Source: Eubacteriales bacterium (GTDB lineage: Bacteria > Bacillota > Clostridia > Oscillospirales > CAG-272). Taken from it: a stretch of 37,144 nucleotides of DNA. This document shows, one piece after another, positions 15,657 through 37,144 of the stretch. The notes below the pieces were generated by a model. It saw only the letters and a program-made list of their open reading frames with translations, searched no databases and was not told where the DNA came from. Location: assembly GCA_045633385.1 (NCBI GenBank), contig JAZQYE010000225.1:1-37144 (forward strand). The letters run 5' to 3'. How positions within the stretch are numbered: position 1 is the first letter of the stretch; each line of letters begins with the position of its first letter. The position numbers and the translations under genes were made by a program.

Positions 15657-15667
15657 ATAGGAAATTG

Positions 15668-15755
15668 ATTATTTTGGCAAATCTGTCGAAAGGCAGAGAC
15701 GCAAAGCTTGGTGGCTAAGCAAAGGATATTTGTATGCTCGACCGGTTGCAAACTG
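15668..15755 (+). promoter_or_regulatory. Cyclic-di-GMP-I (GEMM-I, Rfam RF01051-type) riboswitch aptamer
   Basis: GGCAAATCTGTCGAAAGGCAGAGACGCAAAGC (15676-15707) matches the invariant GEMM-I core: GGCAAA, a hairpin capped by a GAAA tetraloop, then GACGCAAAGC. The second hairpin carries a tetraloop-receptor-like GCTAAG...TATGC. Confidence 0.85.
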
Positions 15756-15784
15756 TTTTTGTTTTGCAACCGGTCTTTTATTTT
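15740..15784 (+). terminator. Intrinsic terminator forming the riboswitch expression platform
   Basis: 13-bp perfect stem GACCGGTTGCAAA (15740-15752) / TTTGCAACCGGTC (15763-15775), 10-nt loop, then TTTTATTTT. The 5' arm overlaps the 3' strand of the aptamer. Confidence 0.85.
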
Positions 15785-15802
15785 GAAAGGATGTGACCCA
15801 GA

Positions 15803-16501: not shown

Positions 16502-16519
16502 CAAGGAGTTTACAGTAGC

Positions 16520-17197
16520 ATGAATGACAAGATTTTAGAGCTGTTTGGGGGACAAAATAATTTGACCTGGCAGGTTATTTTGATGAATATCCTGTTTTCT
16601 GCCTTTTTGGGCGTAATCATTTACCTCTCTTATTACCTGACGCATCGCGGAACCATTTACAGCAAAAAGTTTAACGTTTCGCTGGTGGTGCTCACCGTTC
16701 TCACGGGTACGGTCATGACGGTCATCGGCAACAACCTGGCGCTCTCGCTCGGTATGGTCGGTGCGCTCTCTATCGTTCGTTTCCGTACGGCGATCAAGGA
16801 TGCGCGCGATACGATGTATATCTTTTGGGCGATCATCGTTGGTATCTGCTGCGGTGTCAGCGACTTTTTGGTATCCTCCATCGGCAGTGCCGTTGTTTTT
16901 CTCATTCTGTTTATCTTCCATTCGATCAAAAACGACAAGAGAATGCTGTTGATCATTCGTGCAAAGCGCGATCTCGGCGAGCCGATCCAAGCCGCAGTAT
17001 TCAATTTGTTTGACCGCAAGGCTGTTTTGCGCGTGCGCAACACCACACAGGATCGCGTGGAGATGATCTACGAGATCTCCTCCGAGCTGTTGCAACACGC
17101 CGAAAGAGGTAAGCACAGCGTATGCGATAAGATCTATGAGCTTGGCGAGATCGAATACGTCAACATCGTCATGCAAAACGACGAGATCTCCGGTTGA
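16520..17197 (+). CDS. DUF4956-family integral membrane protein
   Basis: 225 aa with 4-5 hydrophobic segments. GALSIVRFRTAIKDARDTMYIFWAIIVGICCG is the hallmark DUF4956 block. The soluble C-terminal tail is about 90 aa. Confidence 0.8.
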   Translation: MNDKILELFGGQNNLTWQVILMNILFSAFLGVIIYLSYYLTHRGTIYSKKFNVSLVVLTVLTGTVMTVIGNNLALSLGMVGALSIVRFRTAIKDARDTMYIFWAIIVGICCGVSDFLVSSIGSAVVFLILFIFHSIKNDKRMLLIIRAKRDLGEPIQAAVFNLFDRKAVLRVRNTTQDRVEMIYEISSELLQHAERGKHSVCDKIYELGEIEYVNIVMQNDEISG

Positions 17198-17201
17198 TTG
17201 A

Positions 17202-18689: not shown

Positions 18690-18697
18690 TCTGAGAC

Positions 18698-20866: not shown

Positions 20867-20891
20867 AACGTGATTTTGGAAAGGAGCTATT

Positions 20892-22157
20892 ATGATTGAA
20901 ACACTGCTATGGATCTATATTGCGGTCTGTTTGTCGCTGATTTTTTTTCAATGCCTGTTTATTGCAATCATCGCGCTCCGTTCCTATTTTGACCGTCGCG
21001 TGATAGAGCGCAGGTATCGGGAGATCGTCGGTCAGCTTGAGCGGATCTCCCTCAACCAGCCCGTTGCCGACGAGCATCAAAGCTTTTTGAAAAAAGAGCT
21101 CTTTCTTACCCCTTCGCTCTATTGCTACGAAAAGGCGTTGCGTCGGGTGTTTGACGAGATTGAAAACGGTACGCTTGCTTTGCGCGACCCGAACGAGATC
21201 ACAAACGTGATCATCGATATTCGTCACCGTGCCAAAAAAGGGGACGAGAGATCCAGAGGACACTCTAAGATCCGCATGAAGCTGCGCCCCAAAAAGTCGC
21301 TGATCCAACCGCTTGCCAAGGAGCTTGCGGAGCGCTATTTGGGTGAATATGTTCGCCAAACCGCCCCTGCCATCGTTTCTTTGACCGCATCCTATCGCAA
21401 AAAGGACAATATCGTTCACCTGTTTTACATATTCATGCTCAAAAAGTACGGCTATTTACGCCATTGCTACACGTCTGAGCTGGTTGCAAATTTGCGCGAT
21501 TTGTTAGACGACGGCGATTCGGTTTGCGCCGAGGGAATCCTGTTGGCAGTGTATCAGATCGGAGATCCCCACATTACGCTGGACGTTTTACGGCAGGTCG
21601 ATCAAATAGACCGATTCCTGCACCCCAAAATCGTCAGTGACGGATTGCTTTCGTTTGCGGGCGATGCGCTGTCTTGGCAAAAGCTGATGCTGGAGCACTT
21701 GCACGAGTTTTCGGAAACGATGCAGGTCAATCTGCTCAACTACCTGCGCTTTGCGTCGGGTGACCACTGCGAGCGCGTTTTGCAGATGCTTCAAAACGAA
21801 GAGACTTATGACGAGGTGCGTTTTTCCTGCATTCGTTATTTCGGCAAATATCCCTATGAGCCCGCTTACGATCTGCTTGCCGCGTTTGCCGCAGGCATTC
21901 CCGAACAGCGCATCGAATACGCTATCGTTGCGCTTGCCGTTCTCCGACGCTACCCGCGTCAGCGAACGATCGATATTTTGCGTGCACAAATCGGCAGCTT
22001 CAATTGGTTCGTTCGTTACAACGCGACCGAAAGTCTGGAGACCCTTGGCATCGAATATCAGGATCTGGTCGATATTTTTGACGGTAAGGATCGCTTTGCA
22101 AGAGATATGCTGCAATATCAATTCGACCAAAGATATATTCTTGACGGGGAGGTTTGA
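20892..22157 (+). CDS. Membrane-anchored hypothetical protein with HEAT/PBS-lyase-like repeats (tentative)
   Basis: RBS AAAGGAG. N-terminal TM LLWIYIAVCLSLIFFQCLFIAIIAL. Helical-repeat character, e.g. NWFVRYNATESLETLG resembles the VRxxAAxALG HEAT-like unit. Confidence 0.7.
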   Translation: MIETLLWIYIAVCLSLIFFQCLFIAIIALRSYFDRRVIERRYREIVGQLERISLNQPVADEHQSFLKKELFLTPSLYCYEKALRRVFDEIENGTLALRDPNEITNVIIDIRHRAKKGDERSRGHSKIRMKLRPKKSLIQPLAKELAERYLGEYVRQTAPAIVSLTASYRKKDNIVHLFYIFMLKKYGYLRHCYTSELVANLRDLLDDGDSVCAEGILLAVYQIGDPHITLDVLRQVDQIDRFLHPKIVSDGLLSFAGDALSWQKLMLEHLHEFSETMQVNLLNYLRFASGDHCERVLQMLQNEETYDEVRFSCIRYFGKYPYEPAYDLLAAFAAGIPEQRIEYAIVALAVLRRYPRQRTIDILRAQIGSFNWFVRYNATESLETLGIEYQDLVDIFDGKDRFARDMLQYQFDQRYILDGEV

Positions 22158-22159
22158 GA

Positions 22160-23575
22160 GTGAAATACGATTTTATCAACGCCGTGGCGGAATTTTTAAA
22201 GGGTATTACGGTTGGCTACGGTACGTATCTTGTTCTTTATTCCACCTTTCTGTTCGTTGCGGTCATCGTAGGTGCGCTGGTTCTGTATTACCGTAATAAG
22301 CGCATGCGGTACCAGAACGTAGTGGAGAATGAGTATCAGATCCCCATTACCATCGTCGTTCCCGCTTATAACGAGGAGGTCACGGTCGTAGAGACGGTAA
22401 AGTCTCTTTTGACGCTTGAGTATCGCTCCTACGAGATCATCGTTGTGGACGATGGCTCCAAGGATAATACCTCGGGCGTTTTGCGCGAGGCATTCGATAT
22501 GCACCCCGTGCGCCGACCGATCCGCAAGCAGATACCCTGTAAGGACGTTGACACGATTTACGAGTGCTTTACCGAAAAGGTTCCGCTCGTGCTGGTCAGA
22601 AAGATCAACGGCGGAAAGGCAGACGCCTTGAATATGGGAATCAACGCCTCCAGATTTCCGTACTTTATTTGTATGGACGCCGACTCCGTTTTGCAGGCAG
22701 ATTCCTTAATTCGCATTACCCGTCCCGTAATCGAAAACGACGATATCGTTGCCGTTGGCGGCGTGGTACGTCCCTGTAACGACGTCGAATTGGAGGGCGG
22801 ACGCGTCAAGCACTATCAGCTCCCCAAAAACCTGGTGGCTTGTATGCAGGTCGTGGAGTACGACCGCTCGTTTTTGGCTACCCGTATCCTCTTTGACCAA
22901 TTCAACGGCTCTCTCATTATTTCGGGCGCGTTTGGATTGTTCAAAAAAGAAGCCGTCATTGCCGTGGGTGGCTACGACAGCAAAACGATGGGTGAGGATA
23001 TGGAGCTTGTAGTCGATCTTCACAAATACTGTACGGCAAACAAAAAGCCCTACGCGATCAAGTATGCAACCGATGCGGTTTGCTGGACGCAAGCTCCCGA
23101 ACGCTTAAAGGACCTTTGTAAGCAACGCAAGCGTTGGCATCTCGGACTTTTTCAAACGCTGATGAAGCATCGCTCCATGGCAACCGATTTCAAAAGCGGC
23201 CCCGTCAGCTTTATTTCCTATGCGTATTTCTTTATTTACGAGTTTTTGTCACCCTTTATCGAGTTTTTCGGCTTGATCGTTACGTTCTTATCTCTTGTTG
23301 CCAAGCTGATCAACTTTAAATTCTTTTTGATGTTTACCGCAATTTACGCATTGTTTGGCGCGGCACTGACGCTGACCTCGTTTTTTGCGCGAACACAGAC
23401 CTCCGAGATCAAGCTGACCGTGCGCGACGTTGCAAAAGCGGCTTTGATGTGTTTGCTGGAGATCGTTTTTATGCACAACGTTATGACGTACGTGCGCGCC
23501 ACCGCCTTTATCGGCTACCGTAAAAAGAAGCTGCAATGGGGACGGATCGAGCGAAAGAAAATCAACTTAAAGTAA
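22160..23575 (+). CDS. Processive family-2 glycosyltransferase (IcaA/PgaC/BcsA-like polysaccharide synthase)
   Basis: ORF track 22154..23575 (TTG). GTG 22160 is preferred (GGGGAGG 7 nt upstream). VVDDGSKDNT, CMDADS, GEDMEL and QRKRW (23123-23137) form the D,D,D,QxxRW signature. N-terminal TM plus about four C-terminal TM segments; no PilZ domain. Confidence 0.88.
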   Translation: MKYDFINAVAEFLKGITVGYGTYLVLYSTFLFVAVIVGALVLYYRNKRMRYQNVVENEYQIPITIVVPAYNEEVTVVETVKSLLTLEYRSYEIIVVDDGSKDNTSGVLREAFDMHPVRRPIRKQIPCKDVDTIYECFTEKVPLVLVRKINGGKADALNMGINASRFPYFICMDADSVLQADSLIRITRPVIENDDIVAVGGVVRPCNDVELEGGRVKHYQLPKNLVACMQVVEYDRSFLATRILFDQFNGSLIISGAFGLFKKEAVIAVGGYDSKTMGEDMELVVDLHKYCTANKKPYAIKYATDAVCWTQAPERLKDLCKQRKRWHLGLFQTLMKHRSMATDFKSGPVSFISYAYFFIYEFLSPFIEFFGLIVTFLSLVAKLINFKFFLMFTAIYALFGAALTLTSFFARTQTSEIKLTVRDVAKAALMCLLEIVFMHNVMTYVRATAFIGYRKKKLQWGRIERKKINLK

Positions 23576-23587
23576 GGAGGAGAGACC

Positions 23588-26500
23588 ATGCAAAACAAAC
23601 GGCTTTTATGGCTTATGCCGATGATGATCGTCCTGCTGATCTCCATGCTTACGGTTACGGCGGGTGCCGCGGTTTCCTTTTCCGAGGAGAACCGAGGCGA
23701 CAGTCAAAGCGTGTTTATTGCGGGCAACCCCGACCTGTATCCCATCGAATACTTCAACCCCAATACCAAACGCTACGAGGGCGTAATGCCGATTTTGTTC
23801 GAGCGTATTTCCGAGGAGTGCGGACTTGATTTTACCTACATCTACGCATCTGCCGAAAACAAGCAGCAGTATCTGGCGCAAAACGGGCAGGTAGATATCG
23901 TATCCGCGTACGTCAACGATCGCATCGATACGCAGTACGTTCCGCAGGAGAGTGCGTTGCTTCACTTTACCTATAACGGGCGCACCCAAACGGCAGTCAT
24001 TGGCTTTACGTCGGTTTGTGACCAAACGGTAAAAGAGAAGATCAGTACGTATCTGGAGGCGTTGAGCGAGGAGGAGCTGACGGCAATTACCGTTTCCTAC
24101 GTTATGACGCACCAAAGAGAGAGCGCCAAAAACGCATGGATCTTGCCAACCGTTATCGCGGTGATATTGGTCGCGCTTGTCGTTTTGGGCTTGCTGTTCT
24201 ACCGCAATCAAAAGAGGACGGTGGAGCAAAAAAAAATCAACCCCAAAAGCGGACTGTACAACAAGAGCTATCTGGACGTTATTTTGTATTCCTTGATCCA
24301 CGATTTCGTCCGCAAGCGCTATTATGCGGTTTACGTCTCCGCAAATTATGAAAACCTGCTCAAATACTACACCAAGCCCCAATTGGTCGCGCTGTCGGAT
24401 TATATATCGCGCACCTTGCAGGCTGAATTGCAGGATCGCGAGTTTGGCATTCACGTAGGTGAAGACGTTACCTTTTTGCTGTTGATACAAGCCCCCAATC
24501 AGGGGCAGGCAGAGCAAAGGGTTGACGCGCTGATTCAAAGGCTGAACCTTGAAAACGAGATCTTGAGCGACGATTATCGCGTAACGATCTCGGCAGGCTG
24601 TTACGGACTTTCGCAGGCACGCGAGAGCGGCGAACGCATTCTCGACGTAACGAGCGAGGCATATCTTTACGCCGAGGAAAACGCGCTTCGGTACTTCTTT
24701 ATCGACCCTGTATTCCTGAAGCGGGTGGATCGTAAGGCGCTTTTGCAAAAGGAGACCGTTCAAGCGATCAAAAAGGATCAGATCCTGTTCTATCTGCAAT
24801 ATATTGTGGATATTCAAAGAAACGTCATCATCGGTGCAGAGTCGCTCTCCCGTTGGGAGCACCCGCGTGAGGGACTGCTGTTCCCGGGGGCTTACATACA
24901 GCTGATGCAGCACGCAAACAACATTCATTTGTTGGATTTTTACATGCTTGAAAAAAGCTGTCAACAGCTTGCACGCTGGAACACGGACGAAGCGAACGGC
25001 TTGAAGATCTCCTGCAACTTTGACCGACAAACCGTTGCACGGGAAGATTTTTACGACCGTGTCATGGAGATCACCGAAAAATACGGCGTCGATCGCAGTC
25101 GCCTCGTTTTGGAGATCACCGAGGATACCTTTGTTTACAACAAAGAAAACGTGATGCAAAACACGGGCAGACTGCGTAAGGAAGGCTTTAACATAGCCCT
25201 TGACGATTTTGGCAGGGGAAGCTCTTATTTCCAGAATCTGATCGAGTATCACGTCTCCCTTCTCAAGCTGGATCGCATCTTCGTTGCCATGATGAAGACC
25301 GCGCCCGGCGAAACGCTCATCCGCGGAATCGTAACGGCGGCGCACGATCTTGGACTCCACGTACTGCAAGAGGGCGTAGAGACCTACGCAGAGCTGCAAA
25401 CGTGCAAGGCGTTTGGCATTGATATGGTGCAGGGCTTTGTGTTCTCCCGCGTCATTCCCGGCATCGAGGGCGATCGCGTCAGACGCCGTTTGGCTGCTCG
25501 TCTGTTGGAGGAGGGCGCACCCCAAAACAGCTTGCAGACCTATGCCGACGTCAACCCCGACGCCGAGGAGGATAACGTTTACGAGGACGATGACGAGGAG
25601 GGAAGCGCTTACGGTACGCGCTACCGTTGGAGCTTTTTGGCTCGTTTGCACCGCGCTCCCGAGGAGATCGCCGGTTACTATTCGGAGCTGAAGAACGCAT
25701 TTTTGAAATACAAAAAGGTTCGTTCCCGTATCAGCTGGAGCTACGATACCGTCAGCTATCGCCACGCACCTGCGGCAAAATTCGTCATGCGTCAAAAATC
25801 CTTGTTGCTCTATCTTGCTCTGCCGCCCGCAGAATTTGAGGAAAGCAAGTATTTCTTTGTAGATGCATCCGAAAAGAAGAAATACGAGCAGGTTCCGCTT
25901 CGCTTAAAGATTCGCGGCAGCCGCGGCTTTAAGCACGCCTTGGAGCTGATCGAGGAGCTTGCCAAGCGGCTGGAATGGAAGGAACAGACCGATTTTACCG
26001 CACAGGATCACACCTTGCCGTTCAAAACGGTAGAGGAGCTGATCGAGGTAAAGCTGATCAAAATAAACGGCAAGGCACTTGCCGTAGAGGAGCTTCCCGC
26101 ACCGCAAAAGGTGCAAAGCAACATTTCTTATCAAGCACCGAATTTTTCAATTGTAGAGCCTGTTAAAGAGGAAACATCAATGGAGGAAAATACCATGGAA
26201 AACAATTCGACCATTACGCAAAATATTGCGGACTTTATTTACGGTACCTATTACCGTTGGAGCTTTACCGCACGCCTGCACCAAGCGCCCGAAAACGTTG
26301 CCGAGTATTACAACGATATCAAAAATGCCTTTTTGCGCTACAAAAAGGTCAAGTCGCGCATCAGCTGGAGCTGTGATACCATTACGTTTGGCAAGGAGCA
26401 GCTTGCAAAATTCGTGCTGACGCAAAAAACGCTGTACGTATATCTGGCACTCTCTCCCAAGGACTTGGAGGGAACCAAGTACTTCTTTACCGACGAGTCG

Positions 26501-27214
26501 GATATCAAAAAGTACGAAAAGGTTCCGGTTCGCGTGCGCGTTCGCAGTGAGCGCGGTGTGAAGTACACCATCGAGCTGATCGAAAAGATCGCCGCTCTCA
26601 AGGATCTGCAGCTTGCAAAGAACTTTGAGGTCACCGATTTCACGCTCCCGCACGAAAACGTTGAAACGCTGTTGGATCGTCAATTGATCAAAAAGATCGA
26701 TTTGATCGAATCCGTCGTGGTCTCCGAGGAGGAGAGCGAGGAGGAGAGCGTAGCGGCTGCTGCCGTTTTGGAGGAGGCACCCGTTGAGGAAGCACCTGCC
26801 GAGGAGCCGGTCGTTGAGGAAGCACCCGTCGAGGAAGCACCCGTCGAGGAGCCGGTCGTTGAGGAGGCACCCGTCGAGGAAACGCCTGTAGAGGAGCCGG
26901 TCGTTGAGGAGCCCGTTGTGGAAGAAACTCCCGTTCAGGAGCCCCCCGTTGAAGAGCCGGTACAGGAAGAGCCCAAAGCAGAAGAGACCGTTCCTGCGCA
27001 AGCAACGTTCACCGTGGTTGAGGAAACGCCCGCAGAGCAGATTCAAAACGCGGATCTTGCCGAGGCTGAGACCATTCACGTTGCCTTCCTGCAAAAGCTT
27101 TGCCAGCAGTTTGACGCCGACGAATTAAACGCGCACGTCAAGGTGATCTACAAAAAGAAGAGAGAAAAGAAGACGAGTATCTTCGACATCATCATGAAGA
27201 AGAACCGCTCTTGA
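23588..27214 (+). CDS. Multidomain c-di-GMP signalling protein: SBP-like ectodomain, TM, degenerate GGDEF, EAL, two copies of an unassigned module, acidic EExPV repeats
   Basis: RBS AAGGAGGAG. Signal/TM followed by IAGNPDLYPIEYF (type-3 solute-binding-like) and a TM at aa 184-205. The GGDEF position reads VGEDV (24455-24469). The EAL domain has ESLSR (24839-24847), CNF, EITE, DDFGRGSS, KLD, EGVET and QGF all present. Confidence 0.9.
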   Translation: MQNKRLLWLMPMMIVLLISMLTVTAGAAVSFSEENRGDSQSVFIAGNPDLYPIEYFNPNTKRYEGVMPILFERISEECGLDFTYIYASAENKQQYLAQNGQVDIVSAYVNDRIDTQYVPQESALLHFTYNGRTQTAVIGFTSVCDQTVKEKISTYLEALSEEELTAITVSYVMTHQRESAKNAWILPTVIAVILVALVVLGLLFYRNQKRTVEQKKINPKSGLYNKSYLDVILYSLIHDFVRKRYYAVYVSANYENLLKYYTKPQLVALSDYISRTLQAELQDREFGIHVGEDVTFLLLIQAPNQGQAEQRVDALIQRLNLENEILSDDYRVTISAGCYGLSQARESGERILDVTSEAYLYAEENALRYFFIDPVFLKRVDRKALLQKETVQAIKKDQILFYLQYIVDIQRNVIIGAESLSRWEHPREGLLFPGAYIQLMQHANNIHLLDFYMLEKSCQQLARWNTDEANGLKISCNFDRQTVAREDFYDRVMEITEKYGVDRSRLVLEITEDTFVYNKENVMQNTGRLRKEGFNIALDDFGRGSSYFQNLIEYHVSLLKLDRIFVAMMKTAPGETLIRGIVTAAHDLGLHVLQEGVETYAELQTCKAFGIDMVQGFVFSRVIPGIEGDRVRRRLAARLLEEGAPQNSLQTYADVNPDAEEDNVYEDDDEEGSAYGTRYRWSFLARLHRAPEEIAGYYSELKNAFLKYKKVRSRISWSYDTVSYRHAPAAKFVMRQKSLLLYLALPPAEFEESKYFFVDASEKKKYEQVPLRLKIRGSRGFKHALELIEELAKRLEWKEQTDFTAQDHTLPFKTVEELIEVKLIKINGKALAVEELPAPQKVQSNISYQAPNFSIVEPVKEETSMEENTMENNSTITQNIADFIYGTYYRWSFTARLHQAPENVAEYYNDIKNAFLRYKKVKSRISWSCDTITFGKEQLAKFVLTQKTLYVYLALSPKDLEGTKYFFTDESDIKKYEKVPVRVRVRSERGVKYTIELIEKIAALKDLQLAKNFEVTDFTLPHENVETLLDRQLIKKIDLIESVVVSEEESEEESVAAAAVLEEAPVEEAPAEEPVVEEAPVEEAPVEEPVVEEAPVEETPVEEPVVEEPVVEETPVQEPPVEEPVQEEPKAEETVPAQATFTVVEETPAEQIQNADLAEAETIHVAFLQKLCQQFDADELNAHVKVIYKKKREKKTSIFDIIMKKNRS
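25610..26695 (+). repeat. Intragenic tandem duplication with a 630-nt (210-aa) period
   Basis: Copy 1 starts at 25610 (YGTRYRWSFLARLHRAPEE...KNAFLKYKKVRSRISWSYDT). Copy 2 starts at 26240 (YGTYYRWSFTARLHQAPEN...KNAFLRYKKVKSRISWSCDT). About half the residues are identical across roughly 150 aa, and synonymous sites have diverged. Confidence 0.85.
26771..26986 (+). repeat. 15-nt tandem repeat encoding about 14 EE(A/T/P)PV pentapeptides
   Basis: GAGGAAGCACCCGTC / GAGGAGCCGGTCGTT units in frame: EEAPV EEAPA EEPVV EEAPV EEAPV EEPVV EEAPV EETPV EEPVV EEPVV EETPV QEPPV EEPVQ EEPKA. Confidence 0.9.
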
Positions 27215-27262
27215 TCTGCCAAAGCTTTCCACCTTCATCAAGTAAAAGGAGCGTAAGCCAAC

Positions 27263-28525
27263 TTGAAAAAGCATTTATTATTGATTGTAATTTGTTTTGC
27301 ATTGTTACTGACATCATTTGGTTGTACGGCCGATTCCACAGAAACCGAGAGCACGCAAACGCCTTCGCAAACTACCAAAGATCCTTCGTTGCAGGAGACG
27401 ACCGATCCCTCCGTTGATCAAGAGCCGACCGCCAAAGCCATTTGGCAGGACGCCAATAACGTCGTTCTTCTTTGGAGCAACGAGGCAAATCACGAGTACA
27501 GCATCTACCGAAGCAACAGCCCCGAGGGGAGCTTTGCGTATCTCGGCAAGAGCTTGACGGGCTCTTACCGCGATGCCACGGCAACCTATCCAAACGCGTA
27601 CTACTACAAAATAAAAGACAAAGATCTTAAAACACAGCAGGTACGGGAGCTTGAGCCGATCGGCGCGGTCGTTGCGCCCGAGGAGGTGGACTCTGTCAGC
27701 GTGATCATGTATCACAATTTTGTCAGCCAAGAGGATATCGAAAACGGCATTGAGTTTGAGGAATATTCCATCTCTCCCGCCGATTTTGAAGCGGATCTGA
27801 TCTGGCTGAAGGAAAACGGCTACGTTACCATCACGTCAAGAGAGCTGTTGTATTATCTGGAGAACAAAGAGCCCATTCCGCAAAAGGCGGTCATTCTGTC
27901 TATCGATGACGGCTCGTGGGGCGTATATACCAACGCTTGGCCGCTCTTGAAAAAGCACGGCATGAAGGCGGATTTCAACGTCATCGGCGCGCAGATCGAT
28001 GCTACGTGGGAGCTGCTTCATTCTGGCGGAACGCGAGAGGGCGAGCCCGCACCTTTTTGCACGTGGGAGGAGCTGATCGAAATGCAGCAAAGCGGAGAGA
28101 TTAACGTATGCTCCCATACCTACGGTATGCACGTGTATAACAAAGAAAAGCGCGTGGGCATGAGCATGATGGAAAACGAGACCCCCGAGGCGTTTGCACA
28201 AGCCGTTCAAAAGGACTACAATCTGGTTTTGAGCTGCATGGAGGGCTGGACGGGCATTATGACCGAAACGGTGGCTTATCCCTACTCCAAGAGGAGCGCG
28301 ACGGGTGACCGTATCGTTTTGGAAAACACGGGGTACAAAATTTTGATGGCGGGAAACGGCGCCAGAGGCACGGCAGGGAACTACTTTGTCAGGGGCTGTG
28401 ATTTTGTCAATCAGCTCACGCTCATGAGCCGCCCGTGCCGAATGGACGGAACCCCCATCAGCGTCTATCTTGAAAACATTCAAGTAAGGGATGCAAAAAA
28501 CGGAGTCAACGTTTCGAATGCGTAG
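27263..28525 (+). CDS. Polysaccharide deacetylase (CE4, IcaB/PgaB-like) lipoprotein with an N-terminal FN3-like module
   Basis: TTG start. MKKHLLLIVICFALLLTSFGC lipoprotein signal. VIMYHNF, SIDDGSWG (TFDDG-type motif) and CSHTYGMH (H-S/T-x-x-H motif). Confidence 0.85.
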   Translation: MKKHLLLIVICFALLLTSFGCTADSTETESTQTPSQTTKDPSLQETTDPSVDQEPTAKAIWQDANNVVLLWSNEANHEYSIYRSNSPEGSFAYLGKSLTGSYRDATATYPNAYYYKIKDKDLKTQQVRELEPIGAVVAPEEVDSVSVIMYHNFVSQEDIENGIEFEEYSISPADFEADLIWLKENGYVTITSRELLYYLENKEPIPQKAVILSIDDGSWGVYTNAWPLLKKHGMKADFNVIGAQIDATWELLHSGGTREGEPAPFCTWEELIEMQQSGEINVCSHTYGMHVYNKEKRVGMSMMENETPEAFAQAVQKDYNLVLSCMEGWTGIMTETVAYPYSKRSATGDRIVLENTGYKILMAGNGARGTAGNYFVRGCDFVNQLTLMSRPCRMDGTPISVYLENIQVRDAKNGVNVSNA

Positions 28526-28607
28526 TGGCTTAAAGACGAGGGCAGTGCCTGCATTGATAGCCCGATGCATTGGTTATACAAATGAGAAATCGGCACGATA
28601 AAACAGA

Positions 28608-28655
28608 AGAGAGAGTAACACGGAAATAAGGACCGTGAAGCTCTCTCTTTTTTTT
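28608..28655 (+). terminator. Intrinsic terminator closing the 8-gene operon
   Basis: AGAGAGAG (28608-28615) pairs with CTCTCTCT (28641-28648). An inner CACGG/CCGTG stem is present, followed by a T8 run. Confidence 0.8.
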
Positions 28656-28764
28656 CGTTTTGTGAGGCTTTTGCTATCGCAATAGTGGAGTTGCTGTGCA
28701 GTGAAGTTGAAAATCGGTGATTTTGTAAACATATTTTCAAATGCCGCTTTTTTAAAAATAAGGT

Positions 28765-28793
28765 TTGACATTTCAGGTATATTGTGCTATAAT
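28765..28793 (+). promoter_or_regulatory. Consensus sigma-A promoter of the giant surface-protein gene
   Basis: TTGACA (28765-28770), 17-nt spacer ending TGTGC, TATAAT (28788-28793). Confidence 0.7.
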
Positions 28794-28838
28794 GAATAGG
28801 TAAAATTTTGTAAAAAATCTTTTTACGAGGTGGAAAAC

Positions 28839-31800
28839 ATGAAAAGAAGTCTGTTGACCAGGATCACATCGGCATTTTTGGCGTTCGTGATGGTCTTTTT
28901 GATGATTCCCGCAAGCGTTTTTGCTTCTTTTGCGGATGCGTTGCAAAACGGCGCGGATTCCCGAAAAGACATGACGATCGTGCTTGTGTACGATGCAGAG
29001 GATTTCTACAACATTCGAAACGATCTGAAGGGTACCTATATCCTGATGAACGATATCGATCTTTCGGGCTACTCCAATTGGGAGCCGATCGGTACCGTTG
29101 AGGCGCCGTTTGACGGTGAATTGCTCGGCTCGGGATATACGGTTCGCGGATTGCAGATCACGGCCCTGCCCGAGAGCGAGGACGGCGATCCCGTTTACGT
29201 TGGCTTGTTTGGCTACAACACGGGCTTGATCCGCGATTTGCGCCTGGAGGGAAGCGTAACCGTCAATGCACAAGGCGTTCATGCGTACTTGGGCTCTTTG
29301 GTTGCGTACAATGACGGAAACGTGATCAACTGCTACGACGGCGTTGATTTTACGGAGTATGCGGTTGCCGATAATTCCCTGTACGGCGGCGTTAAGAATT
29401 TGGATAAGACATCCGGTCAGGCGTTTGAGCTGGGTGCTGACGGCACCTTGACCTTAAAGGGAAGTGGCAAGACCTATGCAAACTACACCGTTCTCATCGG
29501 TGAGAGCACGCTCTCTGCCATTTACATCTTTTTGCAAAACGTCAATCTGACCGATTTTGTGCTGGATGCAAGCGCATGGACAAAGGATATTTATATCATC
29601 AGCCAAGGCACTTCCAACAGCATTCGCGCAAAGGAGGATGCAATTGCCATCAACGCGCCCAATGCAAACGTGATCGTATTGGGTGACGCACCGCTGACGA
29701 TTTACGGCGGTAATGGTAGCAATGGAGAGGCAGGAAAAACCGAACAAAAAGACGGAACTGACGGAAAGAGCGGTAAAGCTGCGATTTCCGCAAACACGCT
29801 GACTGTATCGTTGGATAACGAGAGTGTACTTGCGCTTTACGGTGGAAACGGCGGCGTGGGTGGCAATGGTGCCGTTGGTGATAGCGGAAAAGGTGAAACT
29901 GCGGCTCCCGGTGGAACCGGAGGAAAAGGTGGAAACGGTGGAGATGGTTCAACCGCATTAACTTGCAGTTCGCTTGTTGCTGTTACTTTGATCAATTTTT
30001 ACGCCGGTGTAGGTGGTAAAGGTGGCGACGGAGGCAAAGGTGGACAAGGCGGAACCGGAAAATCTACCAGCTTCTATACAGATTTTGGGGGCGCGTTAGG
30101 TACACAGTCAGATGCTGCCAAGAATTGGGCGAATAGTTTTGAGAGTAGTGCCAAAAGTGCAAACAAAGGCGGAACCGGTGGAGACGGAGGCTATGGTGGA
30201 AAAGGAGGAGACGCATTGCCTCCGATCGTAGCATCCAATGTTGTAGGTTCATTCAATCAATTTGCAGGAACAATTGGCATTTCCGGAAATGGTGGAATGG
30301 GCGGAGCCGGTGGAAGCGGAGGTACATGCTATGTTAGTGCTTGTTATCAAAACTGGGGCGACAAATATCATAACAGAACATGGTATGGTTCTGTTGGTGA
30401 TAGTAAAGAGTCTGTACAGCGCGACAACTATGGAAATGGTATATCACAGGTATCTTGGAGCATTCAAACGATTTCCGGCGGCAAGCAATACAATCTTTAC
30501 ACGGTAGCGGACAAGATCACCTACGGTTCGGCTCTGCAAAAGGCGAACGGCTATGGCGAAAAGCTCGTGTCTGTCAACAGCGCAGAGGAGCAGGCGATCG
30601 TTGCAAAGCTGCAAGCTCTTGCGGGTGACGGACAATATTGGCTCGGTCTGACCCGTAAGGCGGTTTACCAAAACGAAGCAGCTCTTGATCTTTGGGTATG
30701 GGAGGACGGAACCGAGTTCTCCGAAAACAATCCCGCCGTTTACACCAATTGGGGGGCGGGTGAGCCGAACAACAGCGGCGAAAACGAGTGGTATGCGCAT
30801 TTGTCCACGGGAGGCTTTTGGAACGATGCCATGGGCGACTCTCTGCTTGCAGGTTTTATTACCGAAAAGGACGTTGCGGTTACCGTTGCTCCCACCATTG
30901 TCAAGACCTTTTACGGCTACCACACGGTGGATGCCGTAGAGACCTGCGCGGGGGAGACGTTGGATACCAACTATCCCACCGATATTTACGTAGATGCAAC
31001 CTCGGTGCAGGGGGCTTACTACGTTGGAACCGAAAGCAACCCCTACGCGGTCTTGCTGGCGGTCTCCTCCAAAACGGACAGCGCGTATAACGTGCACTCC
31101 AAAACCGAGTTCATTTATTTTGGCGCGTTTGGCGGTTGTACCACCGTCAAGGCGGTCAAGATCCCCGAAAACGTGCGCGGCATCGGACCTCGCGCATTCT
31201 ACGATTGCGAAAAGCTGGTGCAGGTCATTACCACCGCACCCATCAACGAAATTGCAAGATACGCGTTTGCCGAGTGCAATGCGTTGAGCGATATGAAGCT
31301 GGTCGATCACAAAGAGGATCTGCGCATCGGTCAAAACGCGTTCCAAAACTGCTCTGCCTTGACCGATATCGTCATTCCCGCAGGCACGACACAGATCGGT
31401 GCTTACGCATTTGCGGGAGCAAAGAAGCTCAAGGCGATCACCATTGCCGCAGGTATTGAGGAGCTTGGCGCACACGCCTTTGCTAACTGCGAAAAGCTGA
31501 CCACCGTAACCGTTGCGCAAAATGCCAAATTGAAGGTGATCGGTGACTTTGCGTTTGAAAATTGCGTATCGCTCACGGGCGTTCGTTTTCCCGATACCCT
31601 GGAGCGCATTGGCATAAGCGCGTTCCAAAACAACACCTCGTTGCAGTACATCTACGTTCCCGCGGCGGTCTCCTTTATTGGTGCAAAGGCGTTTTACGCT
31701 TGCCCTGCGGTGACCTCTATCGTAGTAGCCGAGGGGAACGAGACCTATTATTCCGGCACCTCCAACTGCTTGGTGGAGCGTGCGAGCGGACGTATTTTCG

Positions 31801-34800
31801 TCGGCTGTCAGTACAGTGATATTCGTCTGTCGGGCGGAACGCTGGTCGAGTCCGAGGTCTTTATGGACTTGAACTTTACCCAGCCCATCGAAATTCCCGA
31901 AAACGTCACCTTAGAGCAACACGCGTTCGTGCGCTGCACGGGTGAGATCATCTTTTTGGCGTATGCTCCCGAGGTGCCCAAGGCATACGAGGGTGAGACA
32001 GAGGCGGAGCAGGCAGACCGCGAGGCAAAGCAAGCGGAGCTTGACCAATATATTGCAACCTACACCTCCGTGCTGCAGGATTGCAACGGCTTGACCATTT
32101 ATGCGTATGCAAATTTGGGCGAGCTTTGGCAGGGTGCAGGCTCCGGCTTTGCCCCCAACTATAACCAGATCAAGGATAGTGGTACCTGCGGCGACGCAAG
32201 ATACGTCCTGATCAAAACCATTGATCGATATTATAACAAGGCGCTTGGCGTTTTGCTTTGCTACGGCGACGGCACACTCGGCTCCTTTGATCCCAAGGGA
32301 AAGAATTCCTACCACGATTACACCACCGACCAATTGGGCGTTAGTATCAAAGAGGCGATCGTCAGCAACGGCATCGACGTCATTGGTGCAAATTCGTTCG
32401 TCAATTTTGGTATGATTACGTCCCTGCGTTTGGGTAAGGACGTGCAAAAAATTGAGGCAGGTGCCATTTACGGCAACATTCAGCTTGCAAGTATCTTCTT
32501 TGAGGGCGACTGTCCCTTGATCGACAAGCACGCGTTTACGAGCGACCCGAGCAAGAGCCAGGGCAATGACTCCCATTTGAAGATCGCATACGATAAGGAT
32601 TCGCACGGCTGGAGCTATAACGGCAAGGCTTATCAGTCCTTTATCCACGGCGAGGGTCTTTCGGTCAAGGAGTACGTGGACGGCACGACCTATCTGGTCA
32701 CCACCGATATGGATCTGACGCCGATCGACCGTAACAACACCGACCGCTACGGTATCATTTACGAGATCCAATACAACCCCCACAGACCCGAGGAGGCTGT
32801 ATCGGCTATCGTCAGCGGCTACAACCCCGTTACTAGCACCGAGAAGGATATCGTCATTCCGTTGCGCATTCTGAGCGGTACCGATCCGCTCCCCGTTATC
32901 GGAATCAAGGAGTCTGCCTTTGGTGCGGGAATCAGCAAAACAGAGCTTGAGACCATTACCATCCAAACGCAAAACATCGAAAGCATTGGCTCCAAGGCGT
33001 TTACCAAGTGCGAGGCACAAATTTATTTTGTTGGCGATAACGTCAAAGTGGTTGATGATAAAGAGGTTCCCAAAATAGAGGTTGCCGCCGATGCGTTTGA
33101 CCAAGGCTCTTACATTGTGGTCAACCAGAGCGCTAAGGGCTGGGGCAGTACGCTTCAAAGCGCTACGGTCTACCAATCTGCCGTTCTGACGGGAACGCAG
33201 GATCAAAACGGCGTTTATTACACCGTCGATCTGCAAAACAACACGGCGATCGTAGGTAAAAAGTCCTCGCAAAGCGACGAGGAAAGCTCGGTCAACACCA
33301 GCAACGCGACCCTGCGTAACGTCGTCATTCCCGCATTCGTTACCTACAACGACCGCCTTTACATGGTAGTCGGCTTTGACCGCTACGCATTTTACGGCAA
33401 CAAGAACGTAGAAAGCATTACGTTCAGCCGCTTTGTAGGTGAGGGACAGAGCGAGGCAGTTCCCGCAATTTGGGATTGCACCTTCCGCGATACCGATCAC
33501 CTCAAGAGCATTACGGTAGATGGAACCAACCTGCGCAACTACGTTGCCGTTGACGGCGTTTTGTACGGCAACGCGCTGGAGGCAGAGGGCGAAAATCTTG
33601 TCTTTACCCGACTGATCAAGTATCCCGAGGCAAAGGCGCCTGCAAACGGCGTTGTCAACCTTCCTTCCGATGCGACCTACAATATTACGGTCATTGAAAC
33701 CTACGCCTTTGCAGGAAACGAGAATATCAAGACCGTAAACCTTGCTTCGGTCAACGTTATCGGTTCTCACGCATTCTGGAACTGCACCGCCCTGACCACG
33801 CTGAGCGGCAATTATCAGATCCACGACGTGGGCGACTCCGCGTTTGAAAACACGGCGCTCACCAAATTCCAATTCTCCGATACGCTTGCCACCATCGGCA
33901 CGCGCGCCTTCTACGACTCCAAGCTTTCGGGCGTGCAGGAGATCAACCACAACGTCATTTCGATCGGTGACGGCGCGTTTGGAAGATGTACCGATATTTC
34001 GGGCTTTGTATTCCGCGATTACGGTGCAGGCGAATCGGTGCGTTACCTGACCCAAAGCATTACGGGCAACTACCGCGTTGACCTGCAAGGCGAGGGCAAC
34101 GTTTACGGCGTACTGTTTGATTTCAGCAATGCGCACCTGCCCGTTTTGTTGCAGTATGCAATCACGTTTAAGCAAGGGGAAAACGAGTCTATCGTTTACG
34201 ATATGAGCGATGGCACGCATCTGGTTCCTTACCAGATCGCGTCCGAGGCATTCTGGGGCTCCCGTTACCTCAAGGAAGTGATCCTGCACGACGATACCAA
34301 GCTGGTTGGCAGCCAGGCGTTTGCCGACTGTGCAAAATTGGAGTACGTCAAGTTTGGTGCAGGCTACTACGGCAGCAGCACCGACCCCGTCTCCGGTATT
34401 TACAGCTACAACCTCTTTATCGATAGCTCCGCGCTCGATTACATCGAGGTATCTAAGGATAACCCGTACTTCTGCAACGATAGCAACGGCGTATTGTATT
34501 CCAAGGATCTTTCCGTCCTTTACTGCTATCCCGCAGGTATTCAACGCGTCAGCTACAACGTTCCCGCATCTGTTACAAAGATCTACGATTCCGCCTTTTA
34601 CGGCAACACCAACGTCAAGCAGATCGTTGTGGGCACTACACAGCACATCTACATCGGTTCCCGTGCGTTTGGTAACTGTACCAATTTGAATACGGTTTAC
34701 TACGTGTGCGAAACCGTTCCCACCGTGGGTGAAAAGATCTACGATAACACCCCCGATACGCTTTACACGCGCTTTAAGTCGAGCTTTGCACAAGAGGGCT

Positions 34801-37144
34801 GGAAGGGCTTTGAGGGCGGTAAAAACAACGCGGAGGTGCGTTGGTGCGAGCGCAAGATCGGCTCTTACGAGGTGATCAACGAGGTACCCAACGGCTCGGT
34901 CGAGACCAACGATTACCTGATGTTCATCAAGGGCACCGACGGCTCGGCGCTCAGCGACGTTTACCTCATCGTTACCGTTTACGCCATCGATTTTTACACC
35001 GAGGGCGAGGGCGAGGATGCGGTAGAGGTCATGACGCTCATTCCGCACAAGTTCTACTTTTACACCGACGACCTTGGCAGGATCAATTTCTCCACCGTGA
35101 TCAACGATAAAACGCTTGACCGCCTGATCCACGTTTACGCGCAAAAGGAAGGCTACTACACCTACGATCAGGATATGTATATCGACAACGATATGCTCAT
35201 CTCCTATCTGACCCTGACGCAAGAGCCCGACGTATTTGGCGTTAGCTGTGGAAACAAGGACATCAACAGCCAAACGGCAGACCTCAACCTGTCGCTCTAC
35301 CGCGAGAGCTACACCTACACCGTAAACGACGGCACGACCTCTACCGAAATGGAAAAGATCGTGTACGAGAGCATTACCATCAAGGTTCTCGGCTTCTGGG
35401 ATCCTGCCTGCACCGATCCGAGCTTCTCGCTCATTCAATGCGGCAAAAAGCTGGATGCCATTGTAGAGGTGGACGGCAACAACTGCACCTTTACGGTCAG
35501 TGCCGATCAATTGGTCAAGGATATGCCCATCGAGGCGCGCGTTGCCGTGAAGAACGGCAAGGATATTTTGGAGTGCCGCAAGGTGCTCAATATCAACGTC
35601 ATCGATTTTGAATTGGACGAGAACAACGTCAAGTTCGACTTTGGCACCAATATCTCCTTGGCTGACGGTCCGGAGCTGTTTAAGATGCTCTTTGGCTCGG
35701 CAGAGTTTGAGCTGGAGCTCTCCAAAAACGTCAAGTTCAAGACCGAGATCAACGAAAGTCAGGTCATTTTGAGCCTGACCGCCAAGTATTCCACCCCCGG
35801 AAACAAGGATAACCCCAAAAAGGGCTACGAATCCAATTTGAAGCCGCACGGAAAGGGAAGCTACTTCTACCAATACTACGACGGTTTCTTTACCTACAAT
35901 ATTCGCTTTGTGCAATCCGAGGCAGACCACTTCTTCTATTATCGCATCTACGTTTACCGCGGCTTGCCGGGTATGGACTACGGAGATTCGATCATCGAGG
36001 CATACGGCTCTGTCAACCTCTCTCCGTTTGAGGCACAGCTCATCGGACGCGAAAAGGTGCGCGCACGTGCGCTGATGATCTTTGGTACGACGAGAAACAA
36101 GATCGTTGAGACCATTACCGACAAGTGGGAGGAGACCTTTGACGGTACGCTGGATCTGAACAAGCTGTTTGAGGATGGACTGCCGCACGAGTGGAACCTT
36201 AAGGATCTGTTAGAGGATTACAAGCCGATCAAGGAAGATTTTGTTGAGATCAAGAACGACGGCAAAACGCAGGTCAGCAACAGCCACAAGTTTGATGCAA
36301 GCGTTGAGGGTAAGCTGGTATTTGAATACTCGCGCGAGGATGGTATTCATCTGGCGTCCGGCTCGGTAAAGGGCGCGGTCAAATACACCTTTAAGCACAA
36401 TTCCCAATACGTCATTTGGACCATTCCCGTTATTTTGGAGGTCGAGGTATCGGTCAGCGGCGAGGTCAATTTGAAGCTGCGCTTTGACAGCGAGGAAAAG
36501 CCCGTTGACTTAGAGGAGCTTTCGGTCAAGCTTGCCGCAGATCTGAACGCATCCCTTGGTATCGGATGCTCCATTGCTTCCATCGGTCTTTACGGCAACG
36601 TCGGTACGGTGGTGATCTTTGATATTCTTCCCGAAACCGACGTTCGCTCCTGGGAGATCCACGGTGAGTTTGGCGCATACGTCAAAATTTTGTGGTACAC
36701 CAAAAAATTTGCCATCTGGTCGGGTAAAAAGTACATCATCGGCGGTGAGGAGCAAGCCGTGGCGGCAAACACCTGGAGATTTGCACGCGCCGCAATGTTC
36801 TTAGCCGACACCTACGAATACTCTACCGACTGTGAAGAAAACGCACAGATCATATCCTTTGGAAACGAGCATTATAAGATCTACTTCCATACGCAAATGG
36901 AAGGGGACGTGTACGACGAGTACAACTGCATCAAGCTCGTGATGTCCAAGTGGGATGGCAGTCAATGGGGTGAGCCCGTTGTCATCGACACAGCGGACGG
37001 CTACAGCGATGCCGCATACACGGTATTTACGGATGCCAAGAACGTATATATCGCCTACACCCAGCAAACCAAGTACATGACTGCCGAAACCATCAACGAT
37101 ACCGAGGCAGGTGCCGAGGGGTTGTCTCTCAAGCTGATCACGCT
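28839..37144 (+). CDS. Giant secreted multidomain protein (more than 2768 aa, 3' end outside the window): GLUG-like, Gly-rich, C-type lectin, BspA LRR_5 blocks, further unassigned domains
   Basis: Not in the ORF track because there is no in-window stop. I translated the frame by eye. ATG 28839 follows RBS GAGGTGG, and an in-frame TAG at 28797-28799 bounds it upstream. No stop occurs through 37144, and the reading ends with exactly 2 leftover nt. The N-terminus MKRSLLTRITSAFLAFVMVFLMIPASVFASFADA is a signal peptide, and recognisable domains occur throughout. Confidence 0.88.
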   Translation, partial: MKRSLLTRITSAFLAFVMVFLMIPASVFASFADALQNGADSRKDMTIVLVYDAEDFYNIRNDLKGTYILMNDIDLSGYSNWEPIGTVEAPFDGELLGSGYTVRGLQITALPESEDGDPVYVGLFGYNTGLIRDLRLEGSVTVNAQGVHAYLGSLVAYNDGNVINCYDGVDFTEYAVADNSLYGGVKNLDKTSGQAFELGADGTLTLKGSGKTYANYTVLIGESTLSAIYIFLQNVNLTDFVLDASAWTKDIYIISQGTSNSIRAKEDAIAINAPNANVIVLGDAPLTIYGGNGSNGEAGKTEQKDGTDGKSGKAAISANTLTVSLDNESVLALYGGNGGVGGNGAVGDSGKGETAAPGGTGGKGGNGGDGSTALTCSSLVAVTLINFYAGVGGKGGDGGKGGQGGTGKSTSFYTDFGGALGTQSDAAKNWANSFESSAKSANKGGTGGDGGYGGKGGDALPPIVASNVVGSFNQFAGTIGISGNGGMGGAGGSGGTCYVSACYQNWGDKYHNRTWYGSVGDSKESVQRDNYGNGISQVSWSIQTISGGKQYNLYTVADKITYGSALQKANGYGEKLVSVNSAEEQAIVAKLQALAGDGQYWLGLTRKAVYQNEAALDLWVWEDGTEFSENNPAVYTNWGAGEPNNSGENEWYAHLSTGGFWNDAMGDSLLAGFITEKDVAVTVAPTIVKTFYGYHTVDAVETCAGETLDTNYPTDIYVDATSVQGAYYVGTESNPYAVLLAVSSKTDSAYNVHSKTEFIYFGAFGGCTTVKAVKIPENVRGIGPRAFYDCEKLVQVITTAPINEIARYAFAECNALSDMKLVDHKEDLRIGQNAFQNCSALTDIVIPAGTTQIGAYAFAGAKKLKAITIAAGIEELGAHAFANCEKLTTVTVAQNAKLKVIGDFAFENCVSLTGVRFPDTLERIGISAFQNNTSLQYIYVPAAVSFIGAKAFYACPAVTSIVVAEGNETYYSGTSNCLVERASGRIFVGCQYSDIRLSGGTLVESEVFMDLNFTQPIEIPENVTLEQHAFVRCTGEIIFLAYAPEVPKAYEGETEAEQADREAKQAELDQYIATYTSVLQDCNGLTIYAYANLGELWQGAGSGFAPNYNQIKDSGTCGDARYVLIKTIDRYYNKALGVLLCYGDGTLGSFDPKGKNSYHDYTTDQLGVSIKEAIVSNGIDVIGANSFVNFGMITSLRLGKDVQKIEAGAIYGNIQLASIFFEGDCPLIDKHAFTSDPSKSQGNDSHLKIAYDKDSHGWSYNGKAYQSFIHGEGLSVKEYVDGTTYLVTTDMDLTPIDRNNTDRYGIIYEIQYNPHRPEEAVSAIVSGYNPVTSTEKDIVIPLRILSGTDPLPVIGIKESAFGAGISKTELETITIQTQNIESIGSKAFTKCEAQIYFVGDNVKVVDDKEVPKIEVAADAFDQGSYIVVNQSAKGWGSTLQSATVYQSAVLTGTQDQNGVYYTVDLQNNTAIVGKKSSQSDEESSVNTSNATLRNVVIPAFVTYNDRLYMVVGFDRYAFYGNKNVESITFSRFVGEGQSEAVPAIWDCTFRDTDHLKSITVDGTNLRNYVAVDGVLYGNALEAEGENLVFTRLIKYPEAKAPANGVVNLPSDATYNITVIETYAFAGNENIKTVNLASVNVIGSHAFWNCTALTTLSGNYQIHDVGDSAFENTALTKFQFSDTLATIGTRAFYDSKLSGVQEINHNVISIGDGAFGRCTDISGFVFRDYGAGESVRYLTQSITGNYRVDLQGEGNVYGVLFDFSNAHLPVLLQYAITFKQGENESIVYDMSDGTHLVPYQIASEAFWGSRYLKEVILHDDTKLVGSQAFADCAKLEYVKFGAGYYGSSTDPVSGIYSYNLFIDSSALDYIEVSKDNPYFCNDSNGVLYSKDLSVLYCYPAGIQRVSYNVPASVTKIYDSAFYGNTNVKQIVVGTTQHIYIGSRAFGNCTNLNTVYYVCETVPTVGEKIYDNTPDTLYTRFKSSFAQEGWKGFEGGKNNAEVRWCERKIGSYEVINEVPNGSVETNDYLMFIKGTDGSALSDVYLIVTVYAIDFYTEGEGEDAVEVMTLIPHKFYFYTDDLGRINFSTVINDKTLDRLIHVYAQKEGYYTYDQDMYIDNDMLISYLTLTQEPDVFGVSCGNKDINSQTADLNLSLYRESYTYTVNDGTTSTEMEKIVYESITIKVLGFWDPACTDPSFSLIQCGKKLDAIVEVDGNNCTFTVSADQLVKDMPIEARVAVKNGKDILECRKVLNINVIDFELDENNVKFDFGTNISLADGPELFKMLFGSAEFELELSKNVKFKTEINESQVILSLTAKYSTPGNKDNPKKGYESNLKPHGKGSYFYQYYDGFFTYNIRFVQSEADHFFYYRIYVYRGLPGMDYGDSIIEAYGSVNLSPFEAQLIGREKVRARALMIFGTTRNKIVETITDKWEETFDGTLDLNKLFEDGLPHEWNLKDLLEDYKPIKEDFVEIKNDGKTQVSNSHKFDASVEGKLVFEYSREDGIHLASGSVKGAVKYTFKHNSQYVIWTIPVILEVEVSVSGEVNLKLRFDSEEKPVDLEELSVKLAADLNASLGIGCSIASIGLYGNVGTVVIFDILPETDVRSWEIHGEFGAYVKILWYTKKFAIWSGKKYIIGGEEQAVAANTWRFARAAMFLADTYEYSTDCEENAQIISFGNEHYKIYFHTQMEGDVYDEYNCIKLVMSKWDGSQWGEPVVIDTADGYSDAAYTVFTDAKNVYIAYTQQTKYMTAETINDTEAGAEGLSLKLIT
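30445..30870 (+). other. C-type lectin-like domain (Lectin_C, PF00059-like) inside the giant CDS
   Basis: GEKLVSVNSAEEQAIV, YWLGLT, GEPNN (EPN at 30762-30770) and FWNDA (WND at 30819-30827), in the canonical order and spacing of Ca-dependent carbohydrate-recognition domains. Confidence 0.75.

Follow-up and report, generated by a model that had tools for sequence, protein, structure and literature searches.

The window analyzed here, i.e. the whole stretch of 37,144 nucleotides (nt) of contig JAZQYE010000225.1 of a Eubacteriales bacterium (assembly GCA_045633385.1), raises the question which strand of its last 8.3 kb is coding and what kind of protein is encoded there. The available listing of open reading frames (ORFs) does not contain the plus-strand frame 28839-37144 and instead shows two minus-strand ORFs (31911-36188 and 30444-31628); a sequence-only reading of the region had proposed that the plus-strand frame is the gene and the minus-strand ORFs are its shadows. 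Based on the analyses described below, the plus-strand frame very probably represents the first ~2768 codons of one independently transcribed gene for a giant (~4,000 amino acids, aa) cell-surface protein of an uncultured member of the Clostridia/Eubacteriales, a probable adhesin. The gene itself is ordinary, being a further leucine-rich repeat (LRR) surface protein of the known BspA type. Its absence from the ORF listing has the trivial reason that had been suspected: the listing by design leaves out ORFs running off the source sequence, and no stop of this frame lies inside the window.

The elements of the gene start and of its upstream boundary are as follows (coordinates, strand, element, basis).

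28839-37144, plus strand: partial coding sequence of the giant surface protein, 3′ end outside the window (no in-frame stop; colinear with the homologues P0001-P0009)
28765-28793, plus strand: sigma-70-type promoter, TTGACA at 28765-28770, 17-nt spacer, TATAAT to 28793 (12 of 12 positions matching)
28827-28833, plus strand: ribosome-binding site (RBS) GAGGTGG, 5 nt before the ATG (sequence reading)
28605-28655, plus strand: intrinsic terminator of the upstream operon, a long hairpin followed by a U8 run (RNA fold)

Translation from ATG 28839 to base 37144 yielded 2768 codons plus 2 nt with zero stops, in agreement with the sequence-only reading; over the same interval, the other two plus-strand frames contained 90 and 112 stops and the minus-strand frames 142, 154 and 11. 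The frame is open over 2781 codons and bounded on its 5′ side by an in-frame TAG (28797-28799). ATG 28839 is the earliest ATG of the open frame, and the resulting N-terminus agrees residue by residue with those of the homologues (MKR..TRITSAFLAFVMVFLMIPASVF). The perfect promoter and the RBS noticed earlier were both recovered, the former with an additional TG preceding the TATAAT hexamer (extended -10 element). The terminator is positioned between the stop of the upstream gene (28525) and this promoter; the RNA fold of 28598-28662 had a free energy of -24.9 kcal/mol (z = -5.5), a stability reached by none of 200 shuffled sequences. Since terminator and promoter separate the upstream operon from the giant gene, the latter forms its own transcription unit.

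Nine colinear homologues (P0001-P0009; 3724-4195 aa, 39-60% identity) from metagenomes and from metagenome-assembled genomes (MAGs) of Clostridia/Eubacteriales provide the frame of reference for the encoded protein. Colinearity comprised aa ~670-2767 and the first ~300-550 aa, the segment of aa ~334-670 being variable between the window protein and the homologues. With eight of the nine, BLASTP aligned ~2,100 aa in one piece (39-60% identity), while the alignment to P0006 consisted of two consecutive segments; phmmer with aa 2000-2768 as query scored 513-1270 bits in this family. Protein-guided scans of genome and metagenome contigs revealed a 57%-identical locus of a Eubacteriales MAG (L002) as the only match; the locus on JAZRLS010000016.1 of a Eubacteriales MAG is an example of this giant LRR family, and the P0001 cluster member MBQ9797130.1 is named "leucine-rich repeat protein [Clostridia bacterium]" at NCBI. 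As the homologues continue for 1154-1488 aa beyond the point matching the window end, the full protein is expected to comprise ~3,900-4,250 aa, with ~3.5-4.5 kb of the gene missing; by this comparison, the window fragment is the 5′ two-thirds of the gene. At the C-terminus, each of the nine homologues has a hydrophobic transmembrane (TM) helix and behind it a tail rich in Lys/Arg; in P0001, more beta-rich sequence, a Listeria-Bacteroides-type repeat and Cys-rich CxxC repeats precede the helix. Their precomputed Pfam lists contain LRR families only and no dockerin.

The 2768 aa present in the window are divided into the following regions.

28839-28925, plus strand: putative Sec-type signal peptide, aa 1-29 (inspection of the translation; conserved in homologues)
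28971-29708, plus strand: N-terminal beta-rich module, aa ~45-290 (AlphaFold2 (AF2) model; sub-threshold Pfam Glug match)
29706-30308, plus strand: Gly-rich GGxGGxGG segment, aa ~290-490 (29-30% Gly; AF2 model)
30498-30854, plus strand: C-type lectin-like domain (CTLD), aa ~554-672 (Pfam Lectin_C; matches to the carbohydrate-recognition domains (CRDs) of langerin and DC-SIGN)
31116-34829, plus strand: BspA-type LRR region, aa ~760-1997 (Pfam LRR_5; motif map)
34836-36266, plus strand: unannotated beta-rich region, aa 2000-2476 (AF2 model)
36267-37142, plus strand: conserved unnamed module, aa ~2477-2768 (phmmer conservation; AF2 secondary structure)

Most of this domain order had been read from the translation beforehand, and a profile scan of the translated frame placed its two principal components, LRR_5 and Lectin_C, above their cut-offs. 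The BspA-type LRR blocks account for the strongest signal: Pfam LRR_5 (PF13306) matched with 313.7 bits (cut-off 27.7; E 9e-95) in six stretches, those of aa 830-957 and 1615-1720 being the strongest, and two central pieces of the protein scored 197 and 124 bits. The repeats are ~23 aa long with the consensus IGxxAFxxCxxL, of which 21 motifs were mapped; the blocks (aa ~780-1040, 1180-1200, 1380-1430, 1615-1725, 1800-1840 and 1937-1996) are separated by non-LRR spacers. In repeat length and consensus, the protein resembles the BspA-like proteins (PF13306; prototype BspA of Tannerella forsythia, further members in Treponema, Trichomonas and Entamoeba), with which it would also share secretion, exposure at the surface and a presumed role in binding ligands. 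It differs from BspA by the separation of the LRR blocks and by the beta-rich module, the Gly-rich segment, the lectin and the unnamed beta modules, and its homologues have a C-terminal TM anchor; with ~4,000 aa, such a protein is also several times the size of BspA.

The C-type lectin-like domain is supported by its profile match (Pfam PF00059 Lectin_C, aa ~565-664; 40.5 bits versus a cut-off of 22.6, E 5.1e-10) and by PDB matches to the CRDs of langerin and DC-SIGN (E down to 2.8e-08). The domain contains the motifs WLGL (at 601), EPN (642-644) and WND (661-663). The spacing of EPN and WND is kept in 19 related bacterial proteins, and EPN is replaced by QPD in two others; this retention in related bacterial lectin domains argues for functional sugar sites. 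Compared with the animal CRDs (langerin/CD207, DC-SIGN/CD209, CD23), the match extends across the CRD and includes the WIGL-like WLGL, EPN and WND motifs; in contrast to them, the window domain is bacterial, is placed inside a giant multidomain protein and lacks the conserved disulfide cysteines, and its Ca2+/sugar binding is a prediction. In the animal CRDs, the principal Ca2+/sugar site is built from EPN and WND, and these motifs are associated with a mannose/GlcNAc/fucose-type specificity. The lectin part of the AF2 model had predicted local distance difference test (pLDDT) values below 50. Neither the precomputed Pfam lists nor a motif search revealed a lectin domain in P0001-P0009. The homologues thus share with the window protein the colinear core, the first ~300-550 aa and the signal peptide, and differ from it by the lack of the EPN/WND lectin (and, as far as the neighborhood of P0001 is concerned, in genomic context); by its sequence, the window protein is a lectin-bearing variant of the giant LRR family. 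The lectin graft on the giant LRR scaffold, with no counterpart in the nine orthologues, would be one modest novelty of the locus.

At the N-terminus, the features of a signal peptide are recognizable by eye: basic residues K2, R3 and R8, a hydrophobic core ITSAFLAFVMVFLMIPA within a stretch of ~20 aa, and VFA before S30. The peptide is kept in 9/9 homologues and in MACPF/dockerin proteins, so that the earlier assignment gained from conservation and still relies on inspection. The MACPF/dockerin/cohesin proteins P0018 and P0019, which are otherwise unlike the giant LRR family, have nearly the same signal peptide as that family (MK..TRI.SAFLAFVMVFLMIPA), and this common peptide may represent a lineage-specific or pathway-specific export signal. 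The adjacent module was modeled confidently (pLDDT mostly 85-97, numerous short strands; mean pLDDT of the whole head model 66, i.e. moderate) and is 38% identical to P0019 over 317 aa. In the model, the previously proposed GLUG-like module is beta-rich, while its family name is less certain: the Pfam Glug match (PF07581, aa 150-166) reached 18.3 bits at a cut-off of 20.5 (E 0.003), PF07581 is present on the precomputed Pfam lists of some proteins having the N-terminal module, and Foldseek comparison with the PDB resulted in non-significant beta-helix matches (IgA1 protease beta-helix, E 1.3). We tentatively read the module as a GLUG-type beta-helix. The following Gly-rich segment, likewise anticipated by the sequence-only reading, contains 29-30 Gly per 100 aa in aa 301-500; its pLDDT values were mostly 75-97 up to aa ~410 and lower beyond, and over long stretches the model shows no helix and no strand. 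For this segment, Foldseek ranked the polyproline-II-bundle antifreeze protein 7jjv first (probability 0.54, E 0.011) and a phage gp38 receptor-binding domain sixth (E 1.9), both non-significant. Possibly, the segment forms a polyglycine/polyproline-II-type bundle packed against the N-terminal module of the model.

The C-terminal ~770 aa of the fragment (aa 2000-2768) revealed no Pfam, NCBIfam or PDB sequence match, and NCBIfam scans of the head and tail parts gave no family. The AF2 model of this part (mean pLDDT 61, moderate) is in line with the further beta-rich regions noticed before: aa 2000-2476 probably consist of beta-sandwich spacer domains with a long helix (~30 residues) behind them, and aa ~2477-2768 are modeled as seven strands of 15-25 residues, after which another beta-rich region begins and leaves the window. 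Foldseek comparison of the tail model with the PDB resulted in nothing at E <= 1e-3, the usher, autotransporter and Ig-like matches being suggestive only. A word-indexed homologue search with aa 2000-2768 gave no match, which reflects a limit of the index, since phmmer against 1.84 billion representatives detected 90 relatives, P0002 included, at E <= 1e-3, of which 61 also at 1e-10. Nearly all of the 90 are 1,200-5,200 aa long, and the shared part mostly comprises query residues ~480-766 (aa ~2479-2765), the most widely conserved part of the query. Among 16 of these tail-module relatives, Pfam detected LRR_5 in 14, dockerin in 6 and CBM_X2 in 4, and MucBP, Big_3 and Glug in single members. 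Judged from these sequence matches, aa ~2477-2768 are an unnamed module that occurs rarely, in giant surface proteins of Clostridia, and its novelty is modest. A more far-reaching interpretation, according to which the ~290 aa represent an undescribed domain family (~90 clusters at 50% identity), e.g. a wall-spanning or barrel-like stalk device, combined with a unique EPN lectin graft reading mannose/fucose-type glycans, is tentative and on balance unlikely.

Taken together, the architecture suggests the following mode of action. The N-terminal signal peptide would direct export by the Sec pathway. At its other end, the protein would probably be retained in the membrane like the nine homologues, all of which carry a C-terminal TM helix and, on the cytoplasmic side, a tail rich in Lys/Arg. 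The long ectodomain, with the beta-rich domains as stalk, would present the binding head formed by its N-terminal part at a distance from the cell. This head would be composed of the beta-rich module, the Gly-rich bundle, the EPN-type (mannose/GlcNAc/fucose-class) lectin and the BspA-type LRR blocks; the lectin is predicted to bind glycans and the LRRs other ligands, with adhesion to glycans or proteins of the host, the substrate or other microbes as the result. Adhesion is the likely role on the grounds of domain content. The overall design is reminiscent of Staphylococcus aureus Ebh, which is exported and has a very long ectodomain and a C-terminal TM segment, and of the Listeria internalins, whose LRR head binds ligands at the surface of a Gram-positive cell. 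In contrast to both, no sequence relationship was detected, the LRRs are of BspA type instead of internalin type, FIVAR/GA modules are absent and the anchor of the window protein lies beyond the window.

The main functional rival would be a substrate- or cellulosome-related role: the protein is real, binds plant or microbial polysaccharide or is cellulosome-associated or released, and is not a TM-anchored host/cell adhesin, its head acting with or like the MACPF/dockerin/cohesin proteins. This possibility is considered because dockerin-bearing relatives exist. The N-terminal module and the lectin domain also occur in proteins of ~1,550-1,950 aa with MACPF, dockerin, cohesin and Big_3 domains (those of ~1,600 aa include the relative with 38% identity over 317 aa), dockerin and CBM_X2 are found among the tail-module relatives in the proportions given above, and the C-terminus of the window protein itself, lying beyond base 37144, leaves room for such an assignment. 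However, the close homologues without exception carry the TM helix and the basic tail and have LRR as their only Pfam families, and the 2768 aa present contain no catalytic or carbohydrate-binding module domain according to Pfam. A polysaccharide- or cellulosome-directed function is thus rather improbable, and an adhesin anchored to the membrane is preferred.

Far less probable is that the open frame represents a decaying or chimeric pseudogene or a misassembly of repetitive LRR DNA. The contig end cuts the gene, genes with LRRs are rich in repeats and easily misassembled, and the composition changes along the frame: GC3 (the G+C content of third codon positions) is 0.57 in the first 1024 codons versus 0.69 further on, and these codons carry 7 of the 11 TTA/CTA/TCA codons of the gene. 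Domain shuffling that affected the head module would, however, account for the shift just as well, and the lower GC3 and the rare codons of the N-terminal third are consistent with such a module exchange. Moreover, the frame continues for 8.3 kb without a stop, tandem DNA repeats were looked for in the giant gene and none was detected, colinearity with nine independent homologues is end-to-end, and the expression signals are intact, so that a functional gene is retained as the preferred reading.

Several points nevertheless weigh against the interpretation of the plus-strand frame as an adhesin gene. The function of an adhesin is inferred from the domain types alone, and literature searches found no experimental study of any member of the giant Clostridia LRR family. 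Neither AF2 model (mean pLDDT 61 and 66) had a significant Foldseek match, the GLUG assignment is sub-threshold, and aa 535-690 contain no cysteine, so that the canonical CTLD disulfide cysteines are absent. The 3′ end and the anchor type of the protein lie beyond base 37144. Finally, codons 1026-2457 (31914-36209, plus strand; 1432 codons) contain no TTA, CTA or TCA versus 11.3 expected from the codon usage of the neighboring genes (P 8.6e-6); under the codon usage of the gene itself, the probability of this run is 3e-3, and synonymous shuffling gave a run of that length in 0.2% of cases.

The last point bears on the minus strand, where two frames run codon-aligned to the sense frame.

31911-36188, minus strand: antisense shadow ORF of 1425 aa, not a gene (codon-aligned frame)
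30444-31628, minus strand: antisense shadow ORF of 394 aa, not a gene (codon-aligned frame; its 3′ bound is the sense TCA at 30444)

Stops in this antisense frame require TTA, CTA or TCA in the sense frame, which are scarce in the GC3-rich gene (7, 0 and 4, respectively, a total of 11 among 2768 codons, with the stretch between codons 1025 and 2458 free of them); the long antisense ORFs exist for this reason. A codon log-odds score trained on the 15 other genes of the window, one of the checks suggested with the sequence-only reading, amounted to 0.44 bits/codon in sense and 0.08-0.12 in antisense, whereas the two shifted plus-strand frames scored -0.70 and -0.73; over 31911-36188, the antisense frame scored 0.12 versus 0.50 for sense, and the 394-aa ORF scored 0.10. 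Pfam resulted in no match to either minus-strand ORF even at E <= 1. The 1425-aa product would contain no Trp, a single internal Met (0.1% Met) and 14.6% Val, and the 40 nt before its GTG start, inspected by eye, contain no clear RBS. The orthologous genes are decisive: the antisense frame of the P0001 gene (60% identical, GC3 0.58) is interrupted by 12 stops, one of them opposite sense codon 1759 within the corresponding region, and that of the P0003 gene (49% identical, GC3 0.41) by 62, with a largest gap of 278 codons. As to the excess of stop avoidance, the segment of codons 1026-2457 has the highest GC3 of the gene (0.69), and other rare A-ending codons are depleted as well (ATA 1 versus 5.6 expected, CCA 0 versus 1.9 expected). 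The excess is therefore attributed to local codon bias, which explains part of it, and to the post hoc choice of the segment, and not to an antisense gene. Comparable shadows of 741 aa (18587-20812, minus strand) and 729 aa (23606-25795, minus strand) lie over the plus-strand genes 18698-20866 and 23588-27214, which use TTA/CTA/TCA at 0.14% and 0.41%. Shadows in frame -1 that arise from rare Leu/Ser codons have been described, as a rule without selection acting on these ORFs (bioRxiv 10.1101/724807). That one or both minus-strand ORFs are genuine overlapping genes kept by selection against stops is, after the comparison with the interrupted frames of P0001 and P0003, barely credible in spite of this stop avoidance, and a real antisense gene was rejected. 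The minus-strand ORFs are by-products of codon usage and not genes, as the sequence-only reading had stated.

Upstream of the giant gene, a co-directional locus extends from 14006 to 28525 on the plus strand and ends at the terminator 28605-28655. By its domain content it looks like a c-di-GMP (cyclic diguanosine monophosphate)-linked exopolysaccharide or envelope locus, with the following genes (assignments by Pfam).

14006-15580, plus strand: dCache-HAMP-GGDEF protein
15803-16501, plus strand: VTC domain protein
16520-17197, plus strand: DUF4956 protein
17202-18689, plus strand: CotH kinase
18698-20866, plus strand: 722-aa protein, no Pfam match
20892-22157, plus strand: HEAT-repeat protein
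22154-23575, plus strand: synthase-like glycosyltransferase of family GT2
23588-27214, plus strand: 1208-aa EAL protein with a weak, sub-cut-off extensin-like match near its C-terminus
27263-28525, plus strand: polysaccharide deacetylase

A conserved linkage between this polysaccharide locus and the giant gene was considered and rejected: the sole neighborhood examined (L001, that of P0001) lacks the locus. The first 11 kb of the window contain two further genes with BspA-type repeats, again assigned by Pfam.

335-3349, plus strand: BspA-type LRR_5 gene, 1004 aa
9393-10856, minus strand: BspA-type LRR_5 gene, 487 aa

The second of these is located in a low-GC patch (GC content 0.40 at 9-11 kb; GC3 0.37 versus ~0.6 elsewhere) and contains 2.9% TTA/CTA/TCA; its low GC and GC3 values and this codon content suggest a recent acquisition. 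ORFs of 739, 126, 140 and 304 aa (4036-6255, 6346-7188 and 7551-8465, plus strand) had no Pfam match, that of 739 aa no NCBIfam match either.

For genome annotation, the locus illustrates that ORF lists which drop frames at contig ends miss the largest genes and show codon-aligned antisense shadows in their place, and that such shadows can exceed 1,400 aa in GC3-rich genomes. The biological interest of the giant protein is modest and concerns a disulfide-free, animal-like EPN/WND lectin at the distal end, a head module probably exchanged with MACPF/dockerin proteins and a rare, unnamed beta module. If the tentative interpretation of tail and lectin given above were true, the tail module could represent a new structural device of giant adhesins in monoderm bacteria, and the window protein would be a bacterial adhesin with an animal-like CRD for mannose/fucose-type glycans.

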